A DNA stretch of 29,791 nucleotides from a virus. Lineage: Duplodnaviria > Caudoviricetes. A program made the position numbers and the translations under genes. Where the stretch lies: positions 1-29,791 of IMG/VR virus record IMGVR_UViG_3300006046_000017. One strand, given 5' to 3'. This document shows, piece after piece, positions 2,819-26,553 of this stretch (the first letter of the stretch is position 1; each line of letters opens with the position of its first letter). The notes under the pieces were generated by a model, which did no database searches, was not told the origin of the DNA, and saw nothing but the letters and a program-made list of their open reading frames with translations.

Positions 2819-3160
2819 TCACGCTGACTTCGCGCTGACGGTGTAGGGCCTCGATGCCTCAGCCGGCTTCAGCAGCACTGGGTTGATGCCAAGCACGTCG
2901 ATCCGTGAGGGGAACGCCGGGCCGGGGAAGTCGCGCCATATGTTCTGGATGCGTTCGCTGTGCAGCGGATACAACTCCTTCAAGCGCGTGATTTCCTCGT
3001 GAGGCTCGCGCTTCACATCGCCTGTCGGCTCGATCTGGAGAACGGCGTCCGCGCCGTGAAGTGACTGCAAGAGCAGCACTTCGGCCGGGGAGAGGTCCAT
3101 TTTCCAAACCATGTTGTTGCGGTCGCCCGTGAGCGCCACCATTGCGTTAAGTGTCTGCAT
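2819..3160 (-). CDS. hypothetical virion-module protein
   Basis: 113 aa, purine-rich RBS (GAGGGAAGAG), directly after capsid gene. Confidence 0.7.
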   Translation of the reverse strand: MQTLNAMVALTGDRNNMVWKMDLSPAEVLLLQSLHGADAVLQIEPTGDVKREPHEEITRLKELYPLHSERIQNIWRDFPGPAFPSRIDVLGINPVLLKPAEASRPYTVSAKSA

Positions 3161-20162: not shown

Positions 20163-20350
20163 TGGACTCATCCTCCCGCCCCTCCTCCCCTGCGAGCTTG
20201 CGCCTTTAATCGCCAGAACTTCAAGCTCTTACCAGTACGGGACTTGTACGTATGCTGTCGGCCGTGCTACACGTCACACCGGGCCGAGCTACGTCTGTGT
20301 GAGAGCAGACACCGTGAGGCCCGACACTACAACCTGAATCGGAGCTGTAC

Positions 20351-20692
20351 ATGACTGACAAAGAGAACGAGAAGCGCATCGCCCGCGAGCGCTCAATAGT
20401 GCGTGGCGTGATCCGCGCCCTTCGTGCTGCCGGCTGGCAGCCGCACAACGTCCACGACGGCGGCGATTGCGTACAGACGCGCACTGAGTCCGCGATGATT
20501 GACGCCGTGTTTGCCGTGGACGTCTCCACTGCGACCTTCAAGCATCCCGACGCGCCCAAGCGCTTCTTCGTTTCGTTTGTCTGCGGCGAGGGTGACGACA
20601 TCATTGCGGACCACTCGGCGCCAGACGCTGACCCGCACGCGTTCGCCGCGACCATTGACGCCTACATGCGCAAGGCCGGCCTGATCGGCTGA
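20351..20692 (+). CDS. early-type hypothetical protein
   Basis: GGAGCTGTAC-ATG; 113 aa. Confidence 0.8.
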   Translation: MTDKENEKRIARERSIVRGVIRALRAAGWQPHNVHDGGDCVQTRTESAMIDAVFAVDVSTATFKHPDAPKRFFVSFVCGEGDDIIADHSAPDADPHAFAATIDAYMRKAGLIG

Positions 20693-20758
20693 GCGTCGCG
20701 TGATGCGTCTCCCCGTGGGGGCGCATCGCGAGGCATTCCGCCTCTCGGAGCTGTCCAC

Positions 20759-20938
20759 ATGAATCCCTTTTCGTTCCACGTTTCCGCGTCCAACTATCGG
20801 CGCCGTCCGTCCGTGCGCTTTGTCTCGCATTGTGAGCGCTCGCGCCGCCGTGAACGCGCGCTCAATACGCTGTCCGTTGTTTTCGCCGTCTCCGGCTTTG
20901 TCGCCGCGTGCGTCGCGGCTTGGGCGGTGCTCTCGTGA
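20759..20938 (+). CDS. 59-aa protein with C-terminal transmembrane helix (not in ORF track)
   Basis: GGAGCTGTCCAC-ATG; ends LSVVFAVSGFVAACVAAWAVLS; stop overlaps next GTG. Confidence 0.7.
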   Translation: MNPFSFHVSASNYRRRPSVRFVSHCERSRRRERALNTLSVVFAVSGFVAACVAAWAVLS

Positions 20939-21213
20939 GCGCCGCCCCGATCATCGTCCGCGTCCGCACCATCGACCGTTTCAGCAAGTCGCGCACCTTT
21001 CGCACCCTTGCGGGCGCGCAGAAGTTCGCCGCGCGATGGGTCGGCGAGACTCCCGAACTCGGCTCGTGCTACGCGGTCAGCGCTGACGGCGTGGCCACTG
21101 TGCGCGCGAGCGTGCCGGTCGCCGACCTGTTCCCCAAGCTGAACGCCACGCCGTCCGAGGAGGGCCCGGACCCTGCGCGCGAGTGGTACGACACGGGCGC
21201 CGAGCTGCGCTGA
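20935..21213 (+). CDS. hypothetical protein
   Basis: GTG start coupled to upstream stop (GTGA). Confidence 0.7.
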   Translation: MSAAPIIVRVRTIDRFSKSRTFRTLAGAQKFAARWVGETPELGSCYAVSADGVATVRASVPVADLFPKLNATPSEEGPDPAREWYDTGAELR

Positions 21214-21293
21214 CTTGCGCCGCCTCTTGCATCCTCACGGGAGGGTGCAAGGGGAGACGCAATCTCGCGCCTCATCACTCGGAGCTGTATCAA

Positions 21294-21479
21294 ATGCAAA
21301 ACGTAAAAACCGAAGTCAAAGGCAACTTGCTGACGATCACCGTGGACTTGTCCGCGCGTCTGGGCCCGTCGAGCACGGGCAAAACGATCATCGTCGCGAG
21401 TTCAAACGGTAGCGCGAAGATTCCCGGTCACGATGGCGTGCGCTTCGGCCTGAACGTCTACACGGGGCGCCCGCTGTGA
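21294..21479 (+). CDS. small beta-rich conserved hypothetical protein
   Basis: GGAGCTGTATCAA-ATG; LTITVDL...GPSSTGKTIIVASS.G...GLNVY. Confidence 0.8.
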   Translation: MQNVKTEVKGNLLTITVDLSARLGPSSTGKTIIVASSNGSAKIPGHDGVRFGLNVYTGRPL

Positions 21480-21730
21480 GCGCCCGTCGCTGGGACCTGT
21501 CCGACTACCGCAAGCACCGCGACGCGCACGTACGTCGTGCACGCTACGCGTCGCGCATGGTTCACGAGACCCAAGGCGCGACGCGTGAGACGTGGCGCGA
21601 GCATCGCCGGCAGCACGTGAAAGCCGCACGCCGTGAGAACTGGTTACTTGTGGGCCAGTCGCGCGCGATCAGCGCCTCGCTGTTCCTGCGCAAGACCATT
21701 GGCTACGACCAGAGGGCGCGCGCGGGCTGA
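21476..21730 (+). CDS. basic hypothetical protein
   Basis: GTGA coupling. Confidence 0.65.
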   Translation: MSARRWDLSDYRKHRDAHVRRARYASRMVHETQGATRETWREHRRQHVKAARRENWLLVGQSRAISASLFLRKTIGYDQRARAG

Positions 21731-21809
21731 GGGGCTTTTCAGTCGGGCTGGCGTGTGAGAGCGCCAGCCCTTCTGTGAATCCCTTCCGCAATCAACTGGA
21801 GCTGTACCC

Positions 21810-22421
21810 ATGACCCCTGAACAAAAGCGCGACTTTCGCGCCGTCGTTGCCGCTATCGCCAAGGCGTTAGGCGGTACCGTCACGCGCGCACCTGATCCCG
21901 ATGAGAACTATTGGAACGCCAAGCTAACCACGGGCGCCGCGTTGCCCCTGTGGATGAGCTACAGGAGCCATGAGAAGAAAATCACGGTGAGCCTGGACCT
22001 GCCGCCGATCAACGACCGCGACGGCGGCGCCCGACATCAGAGCTGGTCCGATGTCATCGGATACGACGAGAAGAAGAACGGCACGGCGCCCACGTATGAA
22101 ATAGGCGTGAGCTTCGAGCGCGGCGCCGATGCAATCGCGCGCGACATCACGCGCCGACTGATTCCCGGCGCGACCATCCTTTACACGCGCGCCCTTGCTC
22201 GTAAGGCATCGGCCGAGGAGTACGCGCGCGGTACTGCCGCGACCATCGCGAATCTGTCCAAACAACTGAACACGGAACCGCGTGGCGCGCGCTTGTACTG
22301 TGGCGGATGCACGCTCGAAGTGTCCGGGCCGGATTCCGTGCGCGTCGATCATCTGTATGTCACGGCCGAACTCGCCGCCAAGATCGCCGCGCTCGTGATG
22401 GCAGAGAAGGGTGGCGAATGA
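21810..22421 (+). CDS. hypothetical protein
   Basis: GGAGCTGTACCC-ATG; 203 aa. Confidence 0.8.
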   Translation: MTPEQKRDFRAVVAAIAKALGGTVTRAPDPDENYWNAKLTTGAALPLWMSYRSHEKKITVSLDLPPINDRDGGARHQSWSDVIGYDEKKNGTAPTYEIGVSFERGADAIARDITRRLIPGATILYTRALARKASAEEYARGTAATIANLSKQLNTEPRGARLYCGGCTLEVSGPDSVRVDHLYVTAELAAKIAALVMAEKGGE

Positions 22422-22726
22422 GCGCCGCCGAGCTGGACAAGTACGGACCCAAGCCGCCGCAGGAGATCACGCGCGAACGGTTCTGGGACATGCTCGAAGT
22501 TCTGCCGCCGTGCAAGTGGCAAGGCATGGGCCAGCGCTTCGAGAGCTTCCACGTTTCCGAGCGGCTGTCGGGCGACGTGGTGTCATGGTTCTGCCGCGTG
22601 GGTGAGCGGTACTTTCAGGTTGACCAAGAGTCCACGCTTCCACGCGGGGAACTTGAGCGCATGGTCAGCGCCGAGCTGGCGCGCGTTGTTGTCGGGGAAC
22701 TGTCGGGCGGACTGCGCCACCACTAA
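22418..22726 (+). CDS. DUF1419-like protein
   Basis: ATGA coupling; EITRERFWDMLEVLPP...F..SE.LSG.V.S.F. Confidence 0.6.
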   Translation: MSAAELDKYGPKPPQEITRERFWDMLEVLPPCKWQGMGQRFESFHVSERLSGDVVSWFCRVGERYFQVDQESTLPRGELERMVSAELARVVVGELSGGLRHH

Positions 22727-22773
22727 CGCACTGACGAGGGGGCAACCCCGAAACGCCGCGAGGCGTATGCGTT
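22725..22773 (+). ncRNA. type I hammerhead ribozyme 1 (predicted cleavage after GUA, 22767)
   Basis: AACGCA-CUGACGA-GGGG(GCAA)CCCC-GAAA-CGCC(GCGA)GGCG-UA-UGCGUU: full core and three stems. Confidence 0.95.
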
Positions 22774-22794
22774 TACACATTTGGAGCTGTACAC

Positions 22795-23040
22795 ATGCCG
22801 AGAAAAAAGAAGATCGAGGGCGCGCACGAGACCAACGAGGAATTCGTTGCGCGCGTCATGGACGCCCCCAAGTCGGGCCCGCTCATGCAGGTATTCGTAA
22901 TCGAAGCGATGCGCCGGTACGCGGAGCTGTGCGCGAACGGCGACATCGACAAGATGAACACGGGCCCGATCAGCGGCGCGCACTGGAAGCGCTGCGCGGT
23001 CGAGCTGCGCGAGGAGCTGAACAAACACCTAGGCGAGTGA
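22795..23040 (+). CDS. hypothetical protein
   Basis: GGAGCTGTACAC-ATG; 81 aa. Confidence 0.8.
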   Translation: MPRKKKIEGAHETNEEFVARVMDAPKSGPLMQVFVIEAMRRYAELCANGDIDKMNTGPISGAHWKRCAVELREELNKHLGE

Positions 23041-23108
23041 CAACGGTCAAGGGACGCGCACGGACGCGCGCACCCTTCGCCGTTTTCACACGTCTGGAGC
23101 TGTACAAA

Positions 23109-23474
23109 ATGGGTACCTATTTCACGCAAGGCGCCAACAAGGCCGCCATCATCGCGGAGTGCGTTCAATCATGCCGCGCCGAAAAGTACGCGATAAACCG
23201 GGACAACTTGTGGTGCGTCGCGAACACCACCATCGACGGCAAGCCGCACAAGTACGTGATCCTTTTCAAGCTGGTCCCGGATACCTACGGTTGGGGATAC
23301 AAGCCCATCAGCGAGGATATGGGCCCCGCGTACTACGACTGCCCCTTGGAGTACGTCAAGGACGTGGAACCCTACGAGCCCGTGGCATATGCGGCCGAGT
23401 GGCGCGCGAAAGTGTACTCACGCAATGGGGAGAACCGCGCGGGATTCCTCGCACAACGCACGCTGTCCCTGTAA
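23109..23474 (+). CDS. DUF6927-like protein
   Basis: GGAGCTGTACAAA-ATG; WGYK.ISE.MGP.YYDCP...YA.EWR motif. Confidence 0.7.
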   Translation: MGTYFTQGANKAAIIAECVQSCRAEKYAINRDNLWCVANTTIDGKPHKYVILFKLVPDTYGWGYKPISEDMGPAYYDCPLEYVKDVEPYEPVAYAAEWRAKVYSRNGENRAGFLAQRTLSL

Positions 23475-23522
23475 CCCGCTGACGAGTCCCGCGTAGGGAC
23501 GAAACGCCGCAAGGCGTCCGGG
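23475..23522 (+). ncRNA. type I hammerhead ribozyme 2 (predicted cleavage after GUC, 23518)
   Basis: CCCG-CUGACGA-GUCCC(GCGUA)GGGAC-GAAA-CGCC(GCAA)GGCG-UC-CGGG. Confidence 0.95.
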
Positions 23523-23689
23523 ATTGAAAAACGTGTCAAGCGATTTTTGTTCGGGGTTGCCGGCCGTCGGGCTTCCCTGAATGGACACGGAACAGGGCGC
23601 GCGGTCGGTGAGGCTAACTAGCGCCATGAGAAAATATCCCCTCGCGCATCACTTTCGGTGCGCGCGCTGTTACACAACTGGAGCTGTAC

Positions 23690-23914
23690 ATGACCAACGA
23701 AAAGATGGCGAAATTGCTGGCCGACTTGGAACGCACGGAATCGAAATTGCTGCGCGTCATTACCCGGTGGATGAAACTCCGGGGACAAGTGAAACGGGCC
23801 GGCGCGAAGCTCGACAAGGGGCTAGCGGAGCGGCTGGAGAAATTGCCGGGCGCCATGGACGTGAGGAAAATGCCGATCAAGCCGAAGGCGTGGCCGGCGC
23901 GCAAACACAAGTAA
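23690..23914 (+). CDS. small basic helical protein
   Basis: GGAGCTGTAC-ATG; 74 aa. Confidence 0.75.
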   Translation: MTNEKMAKLLADLERTESKLLRVITRWMKLRGQVKRAGAKLDKGLAERLEKLPGAMDVRKMPIKPKAWPARKHK

Positions 23915-23966
23915 GACCGCTGACGAGCTGGTGAGATTCCAGCGAAACCCCGCGAGGGGTCCGGTT
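23915..23966 (+). ncRNA. type I hammerhead ribozyme 3 (predicted cleavage after GUC, 23961)
   Basis: GACCG-CUGACGA-GCUGG(UGAGAUU)CCAGC-GAAA-CCCC(GCGA)GGGG-UC-CGGUU. Confidence 0.95.
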
Positions 23967-23983
23967 AAAAACAGGAGCTGAAG

Positions 23984-24265
23984 ATGGCTGACGCGAACGA
24001 ATACACCTTCGAGCACCTCGAAGCCGCCGCGTGCATGTGGGAACACGTGTTGCTGCAACTCAGGTGCCACCGGGAGAAGGGGAACCCGTGGGAGGACTAC
24101 CGCGAGGCGTACGGCATGTGTGCCCTGCGGGAAACCGTGATCCGTCACGCCTCCGTGCTCGAAGTGGCGTACCAAGCGGCCGTCGCCAATGGGTACGACA
24201 AGGCGTTTGATTGGGAGTACGTACCGAAGTACATGGAGGAACACATCGCGCGGATTCTCGCGTGA
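23984..24265 (+). CDS. acidic hypothetical protein
   Basis: AGGAGCTGAAG-ATG; 93 aa. Confidence 0.8.
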   Translation: MADANEYTFEHLEAAACMWEHVLLQLRCHREKGNPWEDYREAYGMCALRETVIRHASVLEVAYQAAVANGYDKAFDWEYVPKYMEEHIARILA

Positions 24266-24295
24266 TGGCGGAGCCGTAACCGGCGCAACAACGGC

Positions 24296-24330
24296 GAGGA
24301 ACCCCGGCCTAGTGCCGGGGTTTCTTTTTA
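24296..24330 (+). terminator. intrinsic terminator ending the early cluster
   Basis: AACCCCGGC-CTAGT-GCCGGGGTT then TCTTTTT, between convergent genes. Confidence 0.85.
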
Positions 24331-24582: not shown

Positions 24583-24657
24583 TGGTGGACCCAGTAGGGA
24601 TCGAACCTACGACCTCTCCCATGTCAAGGGAACGCTCTACCGCTGAGCTATGAGTCC
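24583..24657 (-). tRNA. trnV: tRNA-Val (GAC) with encoded CCA
   Basis: GGACTCA/TGGGTCC acceptor, TAGCTCAGCGGTAGAGC D-arm, TT-GAC-AT loop, GGTTCGATCC T-arm, ACCA end. Confidence 0.95.
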
Positions 24658-25062: not shown

Positions 25063-26553
25063 ATGAGAGCCGCAACAACTGTTTTTACTGAGACGCTACT
25101 GCGCAAGATGAGCGCGGACCCCAAGCATCGGGGCAATGACTTCACTGACGCCGGATGCCGGAACCTCGTGATCTACATCGCGCGCGATGGCGTCGTGACG
25201 TTCACATTCCGCAAGCGTGTGAAGGATGCCCCGAAGGGGCGCATCTTTGAGGGGCTGGGAACATGGTCGGCCGCCTTCACCCTGGTCCAAGCCCGCGACG
25301 CATGCGCCGTGCGTCGCACTGAACTGTCACAGGATGGGTTCAAGCCGAGGAACGAGAAGAAAACCGTTATCGCCTCGATCCCGTTGTACGAAGCGGCGCG
25401 GACGGCCGGCGACAAACAGGCGAGTCGTCGCGGCGCACCGCTGTCGCCGAAGTGGCGCGAGTATCTGAACCGCTTCAAGGTGGTCTTTCCGAACTTGCTG
25501 GGACGCGACGTGAACACGCTGCGGTACTCCGACTTCATCGACGGAATGGCGGAGTACGGTCGCCGTGAGTACACGGCGAAGGGTAAGGCGTGGGACCCGC
25601 GCGTACTGCGCCCGATGATGGTCTGCATGATGCCGATGTTGCGCTGGTACACGAAACGCTATCGGCTCGATCCGCGAGTGCTTGACGATATAGTTCCTGA
25701 TGACTATGAGCCGGACACTCGCTACCTGCTCCCCGGCGAGTGGCAAGCGTGCGCCCCGCACATTGATTCACTCGATGGGTTAGACAAGGACTGCGGTCTC
25801 TTCGAGCGCTTTGTTCTGTACACGTGCGTCCGATCCGAGCAAGCGCTGGGCATGAAATGGGACGAGCTGCGCTGGGGTGATTGGAGCCACTGGCGCGACG
25901 AGGATGGCAACGAGCACCGTGCGCTGATTTGGATTCCGCCGCGTGAGCGTGTAAAGGGCCGCGCCAAAGCGGGCGGCGAGAAGTTGCCGCGCCGCGTACT
26001 TCTCACTGGCGAATCGCTGGCGATCCTTGAACGATTGCGCGCCATTTGGGAGGAGAACGCGAAGCTCCCAGAGCACGAGCTGTGGGATGGCGTATTCACC
26101 GAACGGATGGTCCACCGCTGGCGTACGGCGCGCACAGAGATGCAGCGTGGCATCGAGGAGAAGGCGTGTACGAAGCCGTGGGATCGCATGGCGTTGCGTC
26201 ACACGCATACGACGTACCTCGCGTTTCTGGGATGTCCGAAGCGGCTGCGCACACTGAGCATGAACCACACGCCAGACAAGGACGAGGGCGCGGACGTGAC
26301 TGATCGGTACACGGGGGCCGACCCGGTGAGGCGGTTCATGTCGAATGATCCGTTGGCCGAGTTGGCGCCGTGGCACGCGCGCCTTCACAAGCTGATCCGT
26401 GACATCGAACGCGGCAACATTCACTCGAATGATCTGGTGTCGATGCAGGAGACGATGCGCGACGGGCAGGCGTGCCGCGATATGTGCGACCAGTACAAGG
26501 TCCACCGCCGGTTCATCGAGGTCGAGGAGACGAAGCTGCGCGCCGTCAAGTAA
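25063..26553 (+). CDS. int: tyrosine integrase with P4-like arm-binding N-terminal domain
   Basis: D...NLVIYI...G..TFTFR...GLG.W...TL..AR; catalytic R (TCVRSE), K (KGR), R (MALRHT), H (MNH), Y (DRY). Confidence 0.88.
   Translation: MRAATTVFTETLLRKMSADPKHRGNDFTDAGCRNLVIYIARDGVVTFTFRKRVKDAPKGRIFEGLGTWSAAFTLVQARDACAVRRTELSQDGFKPRNEKKTVIASIPLYEAARTAGDKQASRRGAPLSPKWREYLNRFKVVFPNLLGRDVNTLRYSDFIDGMAEYGRREYTAKGKAWDPRVLRPMMVCMMPMLRWYTKRYRLDPRVLDDIVPDDYEPDTRYLLPGEWQACAPHIDSLDGLDKDCGLFERFVLYTCVRSEQALGMKWDELRWGDWSHWRDEDGNEHRALIWIPPRERVKGRAKAGGEKLPRRVLLTGESLAILERLRAIWEENAKLPEHELWDGVFTERMVHRWRTARTEMQRGIEEKACTKPWDRMALRHTHTTYLAFLGCPKRLRTLSMNHTPDKDEGADVTDRYTGADPVRRFMSNDPLAELAPWHARLHKLIRDIERGNIHSNDLVSMQETMRDGQACRDMCDQYKVHRRFIEVEETKLRAVK

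Follow-up and report, generated by a model that had tools for sequence, protein, structure and literature searches.

Hammerhead ribozyme motifs and long hairpins occupy the gene junctions of a probably early phage operon

Clustered hammerhead ribozymes of prophages were described by Perreault et al. (2011; PMC3088659): in the accessible part of that paper they flank single genes, and processing of the transcript into gene-length mRNAs is proposed. Cleavage of tandem prophage hammerheads has been shown both in vitro and in E. coli, and the examples include A. tumefaciens, A. caulinodans and C. scindens, together with HHphage of the haloviruses HF1/HF2, which is located 13 nt ahead of the start of an early gene and close to a mapped 5' end (PMC3088659). 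A 2019 review (PMC6765202) repeats the processing proposal and, in its accessible part, still states the role of phage hammerheads as open. In phage T7, the polycistronic precursor carries five RNase III signals, and single RNase III cuts can leave stabilising 3' hairpins (PMC3867540, accessible part).

The stretch of DNA analysed here (the window) is a 29.8-kb contig of a soil phage, with ~62% GC. Terminase, major head and tail genes are encoded on its - strand, and its right side carries an integrase-like gene, repressors, a RecE-like nuclease and a tRNA-Val gene. A putative operon of 11 small genes (~20244-24329, ~4 kb) harbours three type I hammerhead motifs, HH1 to HH3 (Table 1). As in the published prophage clusters, several hammerheads stand at gene junctions of one transcript with an integrase nearby, and clusters like those of PMC3088659, flanking single genes or short blocks, are found here (three in 1.25 kb) and in six relatives (2-7 per operon). 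Unlike those clusters, as far as PMC3088659 is accessible, all three copies are compact type I motifs with no evident pseudoknot. The locus resembles T7 in having structured intergenic sites on one long transcript and hairpins of about two turns with internal loops, but here self-cleavage is predicted at about half of the junctions and would leave a 5'-OH instead of the 5'-phosphate of T7 (PMC3867540, accessible part). The basic phenomenon has been known since 2011, when both clustered prophage hammerheads and a processing role for them were reported and put to the test (PMC3088659). Alternation or exchange with hairpins, a proximal-distal order and a fixed cut-to-start distance are not described in the accessible part of PMC3088659; no paper on hairpin-hammerhead exchange or on proximal-distal order was found in the literature searched, and subscription papers or supplements may cover these. 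What this locus adds is comparative: two element types punctuate the operon completely, one swap between them is strict, they are ordered along the transcript, and a natural U1.7 design is apparently conserved.

Table 1. Features of the operon in window coordinates. The hairpin z scores (-2.8 to -5.5) are for windows picked after the hairpins had been seen.
Feature	Position	Strand	Remarks
Candidate operon promoter	20244..20273	+	TTG-type -35, TGn extended -10; invariant columns in four phages
11 small ORFs	20351..24265	+	only unknown-function PHROG matches; no Pfam match above cut-off
ORF starts	20351, 20759, 20935, 21294, 21476, 21810, 22418, 22795, 23109, 23690, 23984	+	
Junction hairpin A	20695..20734	+	about 17 bp; z -2.8; same-junction hairpin in L126, L069
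Junction hairpin B	21212..21264	+	about 22 bp; z -4.8
Junction hairpin C	21729..21786	+	22 bp, 2x2 pyrimidine loop and mismatches; z -5.5
HH1, type I	22725..22773	+	6-bp stem I (22725-22730/22768-22773); core 22731; predicted cut after 22767 (GUA)
Junction hairpin D	23038..23088	+	about 19 bp, between HH1 and HH2; z -5.3
HH2, type I	23475..23522	+	4-bp stem I; core 23479; predicted cut after 23518 (GUC)
Candidate internal extended -10 promoter	23627..23635	+	3' of HH2; degenerate in this phage
HH3, type I	23915..23966	+	5-bp stem I; core 23920; predicted cut after 23961 (GUC)
30-nt motif directly 5' of terminator	24269..24298	+	strongly conserved; no Rfam match
Intrinsic-terminator-like hairpin and T run, operon end	24299..24329	+	conserved; absent from the list of the dedicated scan

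The ribosome-site motif GGAGCTG stands ahead of 8 of the 11 operon ORFs, and the remaining three overlap the preceding gene; with one mismatch allowed, the motif gave 16 matches (1.2 expected). The seven internal ribosome-site junctions of the operon are occupied by the three hammerheads and by four hairpins of 17-23 bp. These long hairpins, in the same slot as the hammerheads, had been overlooked in the preliminary description. A scan with a strict sigma-70 consensus found no promoter and did not pick up the candidate at the head of the operon. The conserved promoter- and terminator-like sites and the small genes of unknown function suggest that the operon is probably early. The 30-nt motif before the terminator hardly varies between the window and seven related contigs, and L389 has a further match in another context; it could be a small H-type pseudoknot, for which invariance precludes covariation, or a DNA or protein-binding site.

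The three type I cores that had been placed within 22725-23966, sense to the genes, were recovered at those coordinates. Judged by the core criteria for type I hammerheads in the accessible part of PMC3088659, C3 U4 G5 A6 N7 G8 A9, G12 A13 A14 A15.1 and U16.1 H17 are complete in every copy; the stems adjoining the core are paired and stem I is open. Stem III is closed by the loops GCGA (HH1), GCAA (HH2) and GCGA (HH3), which agrees with the GNRA loops and paired stems first reported, and the predicted cuts are likewise unchanged. Stem I of HH1, HH2 and HH3 in each case overlaps or adjoins a TAA stop (22724-26, 23472-74 and 23912-14, respectively), so the observation that each copy starts at or right after a stop also holds. 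The next ATG lies 27 nt past the predicted cut of HH1 (at 22795) and 22 nt past that of HH3 (at 23984), as had been noted. The sequence pattern without stems is within chance (at least three matches in 10 of 100 shuffles); when three stems were required, no match was given by any of 1000 dinucleotide shuffles, and with stems relaxed to 3/3/3, two of 1000 gave one match. No fourth hammerhead was found in the window when both strands were scanned with the stem-requiring descriptor.

In predicted folding, each copy in isolation forms the hammerhead junction. In the Rfam check proposed earlier, RF00163 (Hammerhead_1), with which the motifs share topology and core, reported HH2 at 32.2 bits (E 2e-4), under the gathering score of 34, and reported nothing for HH1 and HH3 at E up to 1. 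None of nine hammerhead matches in seven related loci reaches the Rfam cut-off either, and such hammerheads are likely under-annotated because standard Rfam cut-offs miss them. Contigs of soil DNA run X3, a run not flagged as a possible source of the window, cover HH1 (record 14), HH2 (record 15) and HH3 (record 16) with zero differences. By sequence and fold, all three motifs are thus far regular type I hammerheads, and they likely self-cleave during transcription of the operon. The probability of stem I is 0.02-0.25 in 250-nt equilibrium folds and 0.33-0.86 in short, co-transcription-sized windows; cleavage therefore probably needs co-transcriptional folding and, on these folding predictions, may be partial, especially at HH3.

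The copies belong to different loop classes. HH1 has a 4-bp stem II, a GCAA loop and an unpaired U1.7, and so resembles the engineered minimal hammerhead of O'Rourke et al. with a contact between U1.7 and a loop II A (as described in PMC11875169, accessible part), which shares the 4-bp stem II, the A-ending GNRA loop and the unpaired U1.7; HH2 and HH3 fall in other loop classes. In the accessible part of PMC11875169, the U7 residue is headed as non-essential in the trans system of that study, and the original rates of the U1.7 minimal hammerhead are described as taken at 10 mM Mg2+. U1.7 is present in 9/9 clade copies of the HH1 size class and, in a wider viral set, in 6/6 A-ending tetraloops (two of these from L069), which points to HH1 as a conserved natural U1.7 design. 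The same contact had been claimed for HH1 and HH2. Conservation supports it for HH1; in HH2, U1.7 is present and the last loop II base is A, but on a 5-nt loop and a 5-bp stem, and the claim is unsupported for this copy because only 2/7 of the copies listed in its class keep U1.7. HH3 belongs to a 7-nt loop II class shared with L397, L398 and L399, in which position 1.7 is A (5/5).

HH2 is followed by a 171-nt spacer instead of a ribosome site, and a hammerhead stands ahead of the same spacer in L126, L069, L258 and L397. The spacer likely holds an internal promoter, judging from the candidate -10 element: the position aligned to it reads TGnTATAAT, the consensus, in L397 and differs from it by a single base in L126 and L069. 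The spacer gave no support for a conserved small RNA (z +0.4 in the window; folds of the relatives differ). The hexamer TGTCAA was seen by eye in five intergenic places (near 23535, 24680, 26555, 27584 and 27633); the first lies just 3' of HH2, inside an A/T dyad conserved in L126. It might serve as an operator or as a leftward -35.

With 62% GC, the genome abounds in long stems (285 of at least 17 bp, among which the four junction hairpins rank 4, 5, 8 and 13 by energy), and it is conservation, not energy alone, that carries the hairpins. Hairpin B has a counterpart before the same gene in L126, L069, L253, L129 and L398. Hairpin C belongs to a family of eight copies in six phages with compensatory changes and fixed mismatches, recognised by a pattern derived from its own first members. 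The upper stem of these hairpins has 8-11 bp, the 2x2 loop consists of pyrimidines, a stem of 4 bp covaries, and a G-G and a C-U mismatch are conserved. Besides the window copy, its sites are in L069 (1375, 2295 and 4606), L253 (2654), L398, L399 and L400. The family had no Rfam match, and no convincing copy was found outside the clade in a scan of viral contigs (120 loci, 19/64 parts). In a hairpin ribozyme, the strand opposite would carry AGAA. In hairpin C that strand is pyrimidine-rich by eye and, with no Rfam match, a hairpin ribozyme was rejected; so was termination, since hairpins A, B and C have no U run and D has four U's. At 17-23 bp, the hairpins are within the size of RNase III sites, imperfect helices of up to about two turns (20-22 bp; PMC3867540, accessible part), and by analogy likely act as RNase III processing sites. 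Against the proximal and distal box rules in the accessible part of PMC1540722, the boxes are degenerate and fix no cut register.

The window was compared with six relatives that have full or nearly full operons; hammerheads number three in L126, three in L069, four in L253, seven in L397 (two with an irregular stem III, counted from the fold and outside the strict descriptor), two in L398 and five in L399. In L397 (- strand), two hammerheads, ahead of the starts at 3039 and 3685 in coordinates of the reversed locus, have an internal loop in stem III beside the core. L257, which has the same sequence as the window, enters none of the counts; L127, L128, L252, L259 and L260 are duplicates of other phages, and L258, L129 and L400 are partial and stand outside the junction count. 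By our own classification, which excludes first leaders, overlapping genes and SD-like matches within coding sequence, 27 of the 52 ribosome-site junctions in the seven phages carry a hammerhead and the other 25 a long hairpin, so that all 52 are filled; this agrees with conservation of position, the check that had been named for related phages. Each of the 27 hammerheads counted keeps an intact core while the stems vary. For 12 type I copies from four clade phages, 144/144 scored stem pairs are standard, a figure partly built in because the descriptor demands three pairs per stem, and more than one pair type occurs at 9/12 positions. The hammerhead sets are related and pattern-selected, so counts are not independent.

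The cleanest exchange is at the junction between the 84-aa and 203-aa genes, which holds hairpin C here and a type II hammerhead in L126; the flanking proteins are 58% and 50% identical to their L126 counterparts, and this is the one strict swap. After the 74-aa gene, HH3 stands in the window and a hairpin in L069 (gene 80% identical). By eye, elements mostly travel with the upstream gene, and the gene content between elements is shuffled among relatives. Other apparent swaps, for example hairpin D before the 121-aa gene (which is preceded by a hammerhead in L126, L069, L253 and L258), are therefore better explained by insertion of a gene-plus-element cassette. No hammerhead was found in the surrounding DNA examined for distant homologues of the 121-aa gene (L254-L256 and L261-L265), and RHph_N65 and Mae-Yong1326-1 gave zero descriptor matches. 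In L129, a more distant relative, the operon part examined (~75-580, - strand) has hairpins only; one of its operon genes looks RadC-like by eye. Along the operon, hammerheads occupy 5/24 proximal and 22/28 distal junctions, and hairpins are promoter-near; this order was reached by 1 in 200,000 within-genome permutations, a figure that overstates the evidence because the genomes share ancestry.

Viral contigs were also scanned with a hammerhead pattern biased to GCRA-capped stem III (40/64 parts), which gave at least 125 loci and at least 92 distinct type I hammerheads, 86 of them away from locus ends; these copies are not independent genomes. An ORF starting with ATG lies 10-50 nt after the cut in 79/86 (28% at random positions; median distance 27 nt), an SD is present in 57 (random 8%), and an upstream stop is near the core in 82/86 (random 24%), with the TGA of the core itself scored as the stop in 11/86. 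The leaders after the cut are 47% A. In bacterial genomes, 10/120 loci from several phyla pass the structure filter and 110/120 fail; 4 of the 10 passing loci are titled Bacillota.

The reading that we prefer, at a probability of about 0.7, is that a polycistronic, probably early mRNA is processed constitutively, much as at the RNase III sites of T7. It is favoured because element position is conserved, the cut-to-start distance is narrow in many phages and the hammerheads exchange with long hairpins; the processing proposed in the preliminary description thus appears the best account. The hammerheads would divide the ~4-kb message into mRNAs of one to a few genes. On the upstream side of each cut, the RNA would terminate in stems II and III and bear a 2',3'-cyclic phosphate. 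After the HH1 and HH3 cuts, the downstream mRNA would begin with a 5'-OH and a short A/C-rich leader, the start codon being 22-27 nt away; predicted SD-to-ATG accessibility rises from 0.35 to 0.61 (HH1) and modestly from 0.45 to 0.52 (HH3). The HH2 cut would make no leader for a nearby gene; its main effect would be a defined 3' end on the mRNA upstream, before the likely internal promoter. At the other junctions, host RNase III would likely achieve the same by cutting the long hairpins, in the manner of the T7 early transcript. The complete punctuation by two element types suggests interchangeable ways of processing one message. As a tentative extension, to which we give clearly less than even odds, the two types may form a two-part code: RNase III hairpins (5'-phosphate) promoter-proximal and hammerheads (5'-OH) distal, swapped gene by gene, would set mRNA lifetime and translation, with the hammerheads as natural insulators providing a standard 22-35 nt leader. 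Because the clade gives paired controls (hairpin or hammerhead at the same junction, and the proximal-distal order), the processing hypothesis is directly testable.

The change in stability suggested in the preliminary description draws on RNase E, which is not known to be stimulated by 5'-OH ends. In bacteria with RNase J1, by contrast, an RNA that owes its 5'-OH to a ribozyme decays rapidly (PMC3328962, accessible part), and any net stabilising effect would thus hinge on the host. In an opposite reading, hammerhead cuts lower or time-limit distal expression, either because the 5'-OH feeds a 5'-3' exonuclease or because distal genes are uncoupled from the protected primary 5' end. The glmS ribozyme product with its 5'-OH is degraded by RNase J1 (accessible parts of PMC3328962 and PMC11780869), the hammerheads are mostly distal (22/28 against 5/24), and Bacillota titles occur on 4/10 of the passing genome loci. 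This reading is nevertheless unlikely: stable hairpins occupy the same slot, and the tight 22-35 nt A-rich leader with its SD looks made for translating the cut product. Self-cleavage is reported to have a role in translation initiation in a different system, fungal and plant RNA viruses (PMC13725137, accessible part).

Both element types might alternatively be folded insulators or 3' barriers between the stop and the next ribosome site, with uncut hairpins and incidental hammerhead cleavage. About half of the junctions are hairpins, taken as RNase III sites by analogy only, and the elements mostly follow the upstream gene by eye; a catalytic core would be needless, yet it is intact in 27/27 copies while the stems vary, and U1.7 is kept in 9/9 copies of the HH1 class, which makes this account decidedly improbable. 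Very improbable indeed is that consecutive cuts free RNAs of gene length, which carry a 5'-OH and a cyclic phosphate, are circularised or reverse-transcribed and so spread gene cassettes. RtcB-type chemistry would ligate such ends. The shuffled gene content between elements fits this idea, and the retrozyme circles are a precedent in eukaryotes (PMC7761336); but the stem I strands always match within a copy, a match that cassette exchange at the cut site would break, the repeated ribosome-site motif already gives DNA homology for shuffling, and Perreault et al. found neither circles nor spliced products (PMC3088659, accessible part). Constitutive processing of the message accordingly remains our preferred reading.

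To the right of the operon, the tRNA-Val(GAC) gene (24583-24657, - strand) adjoins the gene of the 496-aa integrase-like protein (25063-26553, + strand), a layout shared with L126, L069 and L253. The protein matches an integrase family only weakly (E 2e-8), and neither cultured phages nor viral contigs gave a match to it; the terminase of the window has best matches of only 40-44%. In the scanned loci L001-L125, type I hammerheads form size classes with different apparent tertiary contacts: domain II loops of 16 and 19 nt are complementary to the 3' tail in a pseudoknot-like manner, and a class of U-starting pentaloops has A at 1.7 in 22/23. In L016 (4264-4349, - strand), a Twister-P1-like match (45 bits; cut-off 67) lies within an array of four type I hammerheads. 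The cultured Pseudomonas phages SCYZ1 and tf, which could serve for in vivo end mapping, each carry by eye an unannotated type I hammerhead-like motif near the left genome end. The SCYZ1 motif is at ~2801-2864 of L387; that of tf, at ~2695-2812 of L386, has a long stem III insertion and lies 3' of four annotated sigma-70 promoters.
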